Positions 50,177-50,734 of a DNA stretch of 64,000 nucleotides are shown here, piece after piece (the stretch's first letter is position 1; each line of letters starts with the position of its first letter). This stretch comes from Candidatus Saccharimonadota bacterium. GTDB lineage: Bacteria > Patescibacteriota > Saccharimonadia > Saccharimonadales > Saccharimonadaceae. Position numbers and translations under genes: made by a program. The stretch lies in contig JAFRAV010000010.1 in the NCBI GenBank assembly GCA_017405225.1, positions 1,862 to 65,861 of the forward strand, read 5' to 3'. The notes beneath the pieces are model-generated. The model saw only the letters and a list, made by a program, of their open reading frames with translations. It ran no database searches and had not been told where the DNA came from.

Positions 50177-50250
50177 ATGTGGTCTTCCCAGCCCAAATAA
50201 TTCTCACTACAGTAATTTTAAGTCATACAGGTTTAGCCTTGTCAAAATTA
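50177..50250 (+). repeat. Repeat R, copy 1
   Basis: ATGTGGTCTTCCCAGCCCAAATAATTCTCACTACAGTAATTTTAAGTCATACAGGTTTAGCCTTGTCAAAATTA. Confidence 0.95.
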
Positions 50251-50259
50251 CTTCCAATT

Positions 50260-50297
50260 CCTTATGAAATGAGATAGCTTCGCCTCATTTCATAAGG
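50260..50297. other. Perfect 14-bp hairpin at the centre of a long palindrome
   Basis: CCTTATGAAATGAG-ATAGCTTCGC-CTCATTTCATAAGG. Confidence 0.9.
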
Positions 50298-50307
50298 TAA
50301 TTGTGCA

Positions 50308-50367
50308 TAATTTTGACTAGGTAAAATCCGCTTTAATGACTTAAAATTACCGTAGCGAGAATATTTG
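50308..50367 (-). repeat. Repeat R, truncated divergent internal copy
   Basis: TAATTTTGA-19 nt-ATGACTTAAAATTACCGTAG-CGAGAATATTTG; the 20-mer core is identical to 50685-50704. Confidence 0.88.
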
Positions 50368-50369
50368 TC

Positions 50370-50627
50370 TGGTCCTACCTCTTCACCCAGTATGGCTATG
50401 GCGATAATCAGGATGGAGCTACGGGACTAAAATCATACCCACTAGATTATGTCTACTCCGGCAACTACTACTGGGGTACTGGTCGCTTATACTTCCAGGG
50501 TAACACTGCGTACTTGTGGTCTTCTACTATCGTTAGTAGTACCGATGCTTACAGATTGAATACTTGGTCGACGGTTGTGCGGCCTGCAGCATCCGATAAT
50601 AAGGCACGCGGGCTCGCTCTCCGTTGA
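50370..50627 (+). pseudogene. Start-less fragment of a FISUMP/Fib_succ_major-like (C-type-lectin fold) C-terminal domain, DGR variable-repeat-like
   Basis: Own translation: WSYLFTQYGYGDNQDGATGLKSYPLDYVYSGNYYWGTGRLYFQGNTAYLWSSTIVSSTDAYRLNTWSTVVRPAASDNKARGLALR-stop; the frame is closed upstream by TGA at 50337 and has no ATG. Confidence 0.65.
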
Positions 50628-50660
50628 GTCCCAAGCTTCTTAAAGGATGCCCTGTACATA

Positions 50661-50734
50661 TAATTTTGATAAGGCTAAACCTGTATGACTTAAAATTACC
50701 GTAGTGAGAATGATTTGGGATGGGAAGACTACAT
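50661..50734 (-). repeat. Repeat R, copy 2 (inverted relative to copy 1)
   Basis: Reverse complement differs from copy 1 at 5 of 74 positions. Confidence 0.95.

Follow-up and report, generated by a model that had tools for sequence, protein, structure and literature searches.

A probable orphan variable repeat of a diversity-generating retroelement in a frame of palindromic repeats between ackA and dnaJ of a Saccharibacteria genome

What occupies the enlarged spacer between ackA and dnaJ in the genome of a Candidatus Saccharimonadota bacterium? We analysed a 64,000-nucleotide stretch of DNA (the window; assembly GCA_017405225.1, contig JAFRAV010000010.1, positions 1,862 to 65,861), which belongs to contig C26 of a metagenome-assembled genome (MAG) of 46 contigs and 643,622 bp that is 96% complete. 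The genes ackA (minus strand, 48884-50140) and dnaJ (plus strand, 50816-51736) stand 675 bp apart, and the DNA between them contains a 258-bp coding fragment without a start codon, bounded by long inverted repeats. An earlier note on this DNA had read the unit as a cassette store or shuffling system that might involve site-specific recombination. That reading is borne out in part. By our analysis the element is very probably an orphan variable repeat (VR) of a diversity-generating retroelement (DGR), set in a frame of repeats. That such orphans act as a reservoir is a more tentative proposal, and the statement as a whole, in which an orphan VR, a reservoir and the spread of palindromes are combined, is one towards which we lean slightly.

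This identification rests on a comparison with the template repeat (TR) of a DGR that we attribute to the same species. Over the 184 nt that copy the TR, the window cassette differs at 16 of 50 adenines and at 6 of 134 other bases (Fisher test, odds ratio 10, p = 2.4e-6). Because its mismatches concentrate at adenines, we consider the cassette to be a DGR variable repeat, and the link to a DGR that the earlier note had thought possible is thus a direct one. Mismatches to the TR were distributed as follows in the VR of the expressed target gene and in five cassettes of the MAG:

Expressed VR: 21 at adenines, 0 at other bases
Cassette in C30: 15 at adenines, 0 at other bases
Cassette in C45: 18 at adenines, 1 at another base
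Cassette in C33: 15 at adenines, 2 at other bases
Cassette in C2: 18 at adenines, 2 at other bases
Window cassette (50447-50630): 16 at adenines, 6 at other bases

The TR is found on L165, a 4.5-kb contig from another sample of the same project, together with a fragment of a reverse transcriptase (RT) gene, ppa and the target gene P0001; the TR lies on the opposite strand. The RT fragment adjoins the TR, scores 38.7 bits against RVT_1 and contains an IGNLSSQLLSNIYL motif and YVDD, and the TR is rich in Asn codons (...YVYSGNYNWNTGRLYNQGNNANLWSSTIVSSTNAYRLNTWSTDVRPAESNNKANGNALRC...). P0001 encodes 751 aa, has the same 47-nt anchor as the cassettes and carries the VR at its end. It is 87% identical to our query over the scored region; this query was a chimera of the N-terminal 410 residues of a relative's target and an extended cassette of the genome, built so that full-length proteins would pass the length filter, and the scored part comprised residues 411-526 only. 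The ends of MAG contigs C37, C27 and C8 match L165 at 100% identity over 141 nt, a length equal to the k-mer overlap of the assembler. Because three contig ends match the L165 gene in this way, we infer that this DGR comes from the same species and that its contig was left unbinned. The MAG contains no RT gene detectable with the RVT_1 hidden Markov model or by tblastn with a relative's RT and accessory protein. An AGGAGG followed by ATG at the end of C37 was considered as an expression start and rejected: P0001 shows an internal ...TGGAMSTA... at this place, so that C37 holds a 5'-truncated copy.

The window cassette has only 16 open codons upstream of it and no start codon; the open frame extends over 95 codons (50340-50624) to a TGA at 50625-50627. 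We found no consensus promoter that reads into it, only a weak 10/12 match inside the L arm. As the cassette lacks a start and a promoter and an intact target, P0001, exists elsewhere, we regard it as an orphan VR and not as a target gene. It very probably represents a 5'-truncated, promoter-less and start-less copy of the last ~88 codons of the 751-aa protein, a membrane-anchored, FISUMP-like (lectin-like) surface protein. The window cassette itself has no match to FISUMP/Fib_succ_major (TIGR02145, PF09603) at E <= 0.01, a sister cassette in C44 scores 18.9 bits, and P0001 scores 20 bits (E = 8.6e-4), under the cut-off of 41.65 bits; the domain is therefore called distant and FISUMP-like. The cut-off is passed by the DGR target of a relative, G007 (68.7 bits), and by a paralogue in C18 (57.8 bits). 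This paralogue (L006, 1063-1977) lies beside thyA, has neither the anchor nor a TR-like backbone, and is a stable, non-diversified family member alongside the DGR-targeted one.

The locus is composed of the following parts:

48884..50140, minus strand: ackA, acetate kinase, the left flank (from the list of open reading frames; Pfam Acetate_kinase on the identical gene in L162)
50165..50250, plus strand: left outer arm L, subfamily B, with terminus ATTAACATGTGGTCTTCCCA and the 27-nt core ATTCTCACTACAGTAATTTTAAGTCAT
50260..50297: apical hairpin, a perfect 14-bp stem (50260-50273 with 50284-50297) and a 10-nt loop
50308..50372, minus strand: inner arm R', which ends at ATTTGTCTGG and is of the short-junction form, without the terminal small hairpin and 62-nt linker
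50370..50416, plus strand: 5' anchor of the cassette, 47 nt (TGGTCCTACCTCTTCACCCAGTATGGCTATGGCGATAATCAGGATGG, encoding WSYLFTQYGYGDNQDG), present also in the expressed target gene
50417..50446, plus strand: variable segment without a TR match, encoding ATGLKSYPLD; TR homology begins only at TATGTCTAC
50447..50630, plus strand: VR proper, a 184-nt copy of the TR (blastn against the L165 TR)
50631..50660, plus strand: the last 30 nt of a further element, module M (CCAAGCTTCTTAAAGGATGCCCTGTACATA), joined to the cassette at a CAAG microhomology
50661..50746, minus strand: right outer arm L, inverted
50771..50809, plus strand: CIRCE-type inverted repeat over the dnaJ promoter, part of the native DNA on the right side of the insertion and also kept in G009, where the site is empty
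50816..51736, plus strand: dnaJ, the right flank (Pfam DnaJ, DnaJ_C)
63929..64000, plus strand: a further L arm, subfamily A, which starts on the TAA stop of the open reading frame 63013-63939 and points outward

The architecture first described for this locus (inverted ends, a 14-bp hairpin, an internal reverse copy and a 258-bp cassette) is present, and we measured its outer inverted repeat as 78 nt with 92% complementarity (50173-50250 and 50661-50738). Several of its details had to be redrawn. The inner arm, which includes a reverse copy of the repeat core at 50336-50362, does not stop at ATTTG; it continues to its terminus and overlaps the anchor of the cassette by CTGG. The TGT...ACA that had been taken for the ends of the unit is internal to a longer conserved terminus (consensus aATAAyATGyGGTCTTCCCA), and the proposed likeness to IS481/Tn7/Mu-type termini consists of TGT/ACA alone, with nothing else in its favour. 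Nor is the cassette a direct neighbour of the right arm, since the 30-nt tail of module M lies between them. When folded, 50173-50377 forms a single long imperfect hairpin (-47.5 kcal/mol, z = -10.9, equalled by 0 of 200 shuffles).

The junctions, one of which the earlier note had likened to a recombination junction, look like microhomology deletions at CTGG and CAAG and not like crossover sites of a recombinase. The same short R' junction occurs at four loci (C17, C26, C36 and C44) and is a 62-nt deletion form of a longer linker that is found at eight other places. On the other side, the tail of M meets the cassette at the CAAG microhomology, so that the window locus seems to have lost the remainder of module M together with a second R' arm; the undeleted arrangement is visible at the C44 locus. 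The junction of the cassette 3' end with the tail of M is unique to the window locus, and junctions between this tail and an L arm number 11 in the genome.

As to the flanks, the extended -10 box of ackA (TGGTATAAT, minus strand) lies ~8 nt from the left end of the element, and the contig ends ~100 nt past the end of the window, beyond the outward-pointing L arm. CIRCE-type repeats (TTAGCACTC-N9-GAGTGCTA) cover both the dnaJ promoter (50771-50809), which is a perfect TTGACA-17-TATAAT, and the dnaK promoter (46735-46783), which suggests HrcA-type heat-shock control in this reduced genome. Rfam models matched only three tRNAs in the window and had no match in six repeat loci and contig C37.

The window copy differs from its relatives in ways that point to decay. 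Its TGA replaces the conserved Cys codon TGC of an LRC motif, and a second change affects the putative initiation of mutagenic homing signal just after the TR match (GAGTCC vs GCGTCT). Where the expressed VR and array-terminal cassettes finish with CGTTGCGTCTCAAGAT, the window copy has CGTTGAGTCCCAAG and lacks the small hairpin, and its borders are the two microhomology deletions. We infer that this copy is unexpressed in situ and has begun to decay. It carries the six non-adenine changes, the stop at the Cys codon and an altered putative 3' homing signal, and the inner hairpin is missing.

This cassette belongs to a swarm. With the anchor CAGTATGGCTATGGCGATAATCAGGATGG and up to 4 mismatches allowed, we found 33 assembled copies in the MAG, a lower bound because the interior of most arrays is missing from it. 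The ends common to all 33 are the 47-nt anchor and CTCCGTTGC. Most cassettes stand in tandem arrays with a period of ~278 bp, shifting frames and stops between them; the number of open codons upstream never exceeds 112, and no copy lies within a full-length gene. The cassettes of one array share one orientation, which suits the proposed shuffling by inversion poorly, and inner cassette boundaries are free of palindromes, which flank whole arrays. Seventeen 'class 1' cassettes have a common backbone broken by hypervariable NN(C/T) codons; the remaining ones are ~50-60% identical to class 1, with the anchor nearly unchanged. There are also at least three longer 5'-truncated copies; relative to the parent protein, they start around residues 513, 615 and 630.

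The expectation that the repeat would be a multi-copy element was borne out: 57 copies of the 27-nt core and 54 L termini are dispersed in the MAG. Nearly all core copies lie ~100-150 nt from a contig end and point outward, 62 of the 92 contig ends fall within these repeats, and the repeats make up 2.7% of assembled bases. The full unit is a ~200-nt imperfect palindrome composed of outer arm L, apical hairpin and inner arm R', always intergenic and of two subfamilies, A and B. Its apical stem has been kept by compensatory changes between the subfamilies and weak homologues in the related genomes G009 and G079, and 11 of 63 predicted pairs were kept via double-sided changes in the same comparison. 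Wherever sequence extends past the palindrome (C2, C17, C26, C38, C41, C43 and C44), R' leads into cassettes, and these are different lectin-tail cassettes; the orientation of palindromes relative to arrays is constant at every resolvable locus. Matches in 3 of 101 genomes of the genus, two of them weak, indicate that the palindrome is essentially lineage-specific; the copy in G009 is solo, without a cassette. Searches for the exact core in contigs of other genomes and for the exact anchor in metagenome contigs gave 0 matches once records of this genome were left out. The terminus of R' carries a small hairpin (TTGTCT TCCC AGACAA, 6 bp and 4 nt) ~12 nt past the homing-signal-like end of array-terminal cassettes, and in this it recalls the hairpin that aids DGR target recognition in phage BPP-1.

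An enzyme for the repeat, which the earlier note had proposed to look for, did not emerge. The MAG has no RT, no Y1/HUH transposase (Y1_Tnp, the one transposase family searched) and no serine recombinase or resolvase, with DDE families and unbinned contigs outside this search. Its sole tyrosine recombinase is an Xer-type protein of 313 aa on C6, an ordinary gene beside ndk.

Three further features of the palindromes were seen. The TAA in the terminus AATAATAT doubles as the stop codon of the neighbouring gene at window position 63937 and at the ends of C4, C9, C27, C31 and C35; the repeat meets or overlaps these gene ends exactly. At ~10 L termini (for example at the starts of C7, C34 and C41 and the end of C17) a second terminal motif (GGTCTTCCCAG) lies ~45 nt outside the first in direct orientation (...GGTCTTCCCAGACTCTGCGTAATTCTTTTGATAACATGTGGTCTTCCCA...); such doubled motifs could be repeated protein-binding sites or nested insertions. 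Lastly, the palindrome at C44:33419-33621 (L046) has a left half of subfamily B and a right half of subfamily A, with the switch at the apical loop and a mispaired tip, and it looks like a real recombinant because an assembler working at k = 141 is an unlikely source of a chimera.

In some right-hand palindromes the loop is replaced by module M, which is GC-rich, measures ~225 nt and is closed by a long stem (z = -6.3); it could be an unknown structured RNA. Eleven junctions join it to L arms, in two length forms ~85 nt apart. It is located at the following sites:

L001 (C44), 1236-1460: module M
Ends of C3, C9, C10, C11, C21, C23, C35, C36, C45 and C46: module M

Module M has no Rfam match, and in 100 relatives from the genus only a weak match of ~50 nt was found.

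The empty ackA-dnaJ alleles predicted for relatives exist. In G009, the closest genome in the genus set (AckA 94-97% identical), the spacer is ~90 bp with conserved flanks, and in 12 other Nanosyncoccus relatives it measures 71-198 bp; by this comparison the window element is an insertion relative to its close relatives. We confirmed that it has no target-site duplication of 3 bp or more, as judged at this single locus with both flanks against the empty site. At this position RGIG5655 (95% AckA identity) has, without a palindrome, several arrayed ~200-aa fragments that belong to the same protein family.

To place the cassettes in context, we turned to the DGRs of the genus. RT genes occur in 43 of 61 genomes, often beside cassette-like matches. 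G007 has a textbook DGR: the target, with a FISUMP domain, measures 535 aa, the TR is rich in Asn codons, the RT gene is convergent and a neighbouring gene encodes 320 aa. G003 and G024 also contain tandem start-less arrays, and the array units of G003 differ from their own TR mostly at adenines (for example 22 of 24 mismatches). In a related species, L167 has at least five start-less cassettes of ~200 aa directly downstream of the expressed gene.

Other observations on these relatives concern the DGR machinery and its target. The G003 array (L033, C29:40000-47576) interleaves two unit types (LPTGGPSGEYQTLYNNYNSY... and LPTGNTTGEFQSLYNQYPTY...) in a genome with two RT genes, and two DGRs may share it. 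Between the expressed target and the array of L167, two small overlapping genes (8256-8820, 106 and 84 aa, minus strand) could, as a guess, be a toxin-antitoxin pair. The gene beside the DGR RT (L034 6912-7874; L147 2965-3978) encodes 320-338 aa with no convincing Pfam or NCBIfam match, the only one being a weak, sub-threshold match to a methyltransferase model; it stands where an Avd-type accessory protein would be expected, with TR and RT convergent, and may be an accessory factor of a new kind. The N-terminal part of the G007 target (L034 3373-4980) weakly matches (E = 0.002) the C-terminal domain of the 'Pam pilus system pilin' of the candidate phyla radiation (NF058581), and the diversified protein might be a pilus-associated adhesin.

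We next asked whether the cassettes bear signs of expression or exchange. In 18 copies, 13 of the 50 TR adenines were never changed and 22 were changed in at least half; by our own estimate, a uniform mean rate of 0.37 would leave ~0.01 such unchanged columns, and non-adenine columns change ten times less often than adenine columns. The untouched adenines belong to backbone codons for Tyr, Ile, Ser and Lys, as if selection had acted on a translated protein. The 47-nt anchor hardly varies at any codon position, even in cassettes with ~50% identity downstream of it, and P0001 has the identical anchor; this fits homogenisation by recombination. Local tracts are also held in common. C26, C30-3212 and C38-11513 have a common prefix of 64-71 nt that includes the 30-nt non-TR segment, which differs in the other cassettes, and their templated parts differ. 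Thirteen pairs have at least 8 consecutive hypervariable columns in common, against a shuffle mean of 3.4, and 0 of 300 shuffles reached 13. Long 5' prefixes are common to four pairs and long 3' suffixes to none, too few to separate partial retrohoming from gene conversion. Taken together, the untouched adenines, the invariant shared anchor and the common tracts suggest that the orphans were once expressed or still exchange sequence with the expressed gene.

We favour the following model for these observations. The DGR would copy the TR with adenine errors into the VR, and the orphans would be snapshots of, or exchange partners for, the expressed VR. Homologous recombination might draw on this reservoir through the 47-nt anchor and the conserved backbone, so that stored tips would be reused on top of DGR hypermutation. 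The palindromes would have spread or been duplicated with the arrays, by a trans-acting enzyme or by ectopic recombination, and may form cruciforms and so promote recombination. The constant orientation, the one deletion junction found at four loci and the insertion polymorphism suggest that palindrome and array spread as a unit. A full two-tier system of gut Saccharibacteria, in which the DGR writes tips, start-less cassettes keep the selected ones, recombination via the anchor feeds the expressed gene and, in this lineage, the palindrome serves as vehicle or recombination signal that takes the arrays to dozens of loci, is a doubtful extension of this model.

How does this arrangement compare with known systems? 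DGRs with several or remote VRs (Bordetella phage BPP-1 mtd/TR/brt, Treponema denticola, Legionella LdtA) are alike in the adenine-specific TR/VR mismatches, in an RT with an SQ-containing motif 4, in a lectin-like ligand-binding domain with the VR at its C-terminal tip and in the use of one TR for many VRs. Here, however, the VR lies in no gene, many loci have arrays in which the orphans, at least 33 in all, follow one another in tandem and in shifted frames, the RT converges with the TR, the RT neighbour in relatives lacks an Avd match and the arrays are framed by palindromes. In DGR surveys, additional or remote VRs lie nearly always inside open reading frames (PMC3521204, PMC6642488), with a single non-coding VR noted (PMC3521204), and truncated or non-coding targets go unmentioned in a large survey of metagenomes (PMC8144416). 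Full-text searches on DGRs combined with Saccharibacteria, silent cassettes, gene conversion or tandem or truncated VRs gave no description of such arrays, and nothing relevant appeared among the titles and abstracts listed for Nanosyncoccus.

Silent-cassette systems (Borrelia vlsE/vls, Neisseria pilE/pilS, Mycoplasma genitalium MgPar, Treponema tprK donors) likewise combine one expressed surface gene with many promoter-less, 5'-truncated cassettes that have conserved borders and variable cores, as do P0001 and the 33 start-less cassettes. The L167 array adjoins its expressed gene, copies in the window genome are dispersed like MgPar, and an inverted repeat or hairpin stands beside the array as in vls. 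In contrast to these systems, variability here is written by an RT, transfer from cassette to expression site is only hypothetical, and the organism is an epibiont of bacteria, so that host-cell surfaces or phages, not antibodies, are probably the selective agent. The palindrome in turn resembles miniature repeats (Neisseria Correia/NEMIS, REP/REPIN with RAYT, pneumococcal RUP/BOX, ERIC) in being a non-coding, imperfect palindrome of ~200 nt with 54-57 copies, intergenic placement that often begins at a stop codon, presence or absence between close relatives, and two subfamilies with the C44 hybrid. As expected of a miniature inverted-repeat transposable element (MITE) or REP, it is short and non-coding, has terminal inverted repeats, occurs in many copies and is polymorphic in its insertion; it differs in that no target-site duplication and no Y1/RAYT were found in the MAG, its orientation to arrays is constant and it forms composite units with module M. 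Recombinase systems (integron attC, the R64 shufflon, Acinetobacter pdif) also place C-terminal ligand-binding cassettes near imperfect palindromic sites within inverted-repeat bounds, but here an integron integrase and an Rci-type enzyme are both absent, with one Xer-like recombinase present, palindromes mark the ends of arrays and not every cassette, and no cassette is inverted.

Could the locus be something other than a framed orphan VR? That it arose in assembly, as a chimeric path across the repeats, is barely credible. The assembler evidently struggled with them, as the contig ends show; yet a 44-kb k141 contig spans the locus, two other assemblies agree with it base for base over the junctions covered (R'/cassette, cassette/M tail and M tail/L), and private variants (AATTGTGCAT and the TGA) mark this copy. 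The agreeing assemblies are not independent strains, because they appear to come from one sample. It is also highly improbable that the cassettes are extra TRs: they lack adenines exactly at the AAC/AAT codons of the TR, a direction of mismatch that contradicts a template, 0 of 33 are Asn-rich, and no cassette in the MAG adjoins an RT. A recombinase with the R arms as its sites, by which the cassette would be cut out, inverted or exchanged as in a shufflon, integron or pdif module, has more to commend it and is nevertheless improbable. The unit lies between inverted L arms and the cassette between direct repeats (R' and the right L arm), the insertion is polymorphic with no visible target-site duplication, the hybrid palindrome of C44 recombined at its apex, and the second motif at ~10 L termini offers possible repeated binding sites. 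Yet the MAG has only the Xer-type enzyme, with no serine recombinase or Y1 transposase; palindromes bound arrays, not single cassettes, whose orientation is uniform in each array; CTGG and CAAG microhomology deletions explain the junctions, and relatives have arrays that lack any R.

The serious rival to a reservoir is that the cassettes are pure debris, functionless fragments of the 3' end of a DGR target, with the palindromes and module M as unrelated selfish, MITE-like repeats in tolerant intergenic spots. We think this somewhat unlikely, although the window copy itself, with its six non-adenine changes, its TGA at a conserved codon and its two deletions, is decayed, and the palindrome of G009 is solo. 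Several points weigh against the orphan-reservoir interpretation. Non-adenine mismatches range continuously from 0 to 25 over the cassettes; the family therefore holds copies of many ages, which suits the birth and death of useless copies equally well. The DGR contig comes from another sample, and a DGR in this very genome is presumed. The never-mutated adenines could partly reflect context-dependent misincorporation and not selection, and the common tracts could result from duplication followed by partial retrohoming, with no gene conversion. No exchange between orphans and the expressed gene was observed: the protein collection held no independent strain or second allele of the expression site, the nearest homologue being 63% identical. 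Finally, no palindrome-moving or recombining enzyme turned up in the families searched (Y1, serine and tyrosine recombinases). On the other hand, debris would hardly be expected to take up 2.7% of a streamlined 0.64-Mb genome, to keep its anchor nearly invariant where the rest falls to ~50% identity, to leave thirteen TR adenines unchanged, to hold palindromes in constant orientation to arrays, or to recur as arrays over the genus, including directly downstream of an expressed gene. A reservoir function of the orphan VRs thus stands as a possibility to be held tentatively.

Saccharibacteria spend their life attached to other bacteria, and surface binders, the diversified protein described here among them, probably determine their host range. 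Surveys of MAGs from this group may count too few DGRs and DGR targets, because the repeats cause 62 of 92 contig breaks, and the RT, TR and target are absent from this MAG, plausibly for the same reason. If the reservoir reading is true, mutagenic retrohoming would be linked with cassette recombination, two processes hitherto treated separately, and a heritable 'memory' of useful binding specificities would be coupled to a retroelement. A DGR with a store of spare tips would then be how a 0.64-Mb genome explores and retains binding specificities.

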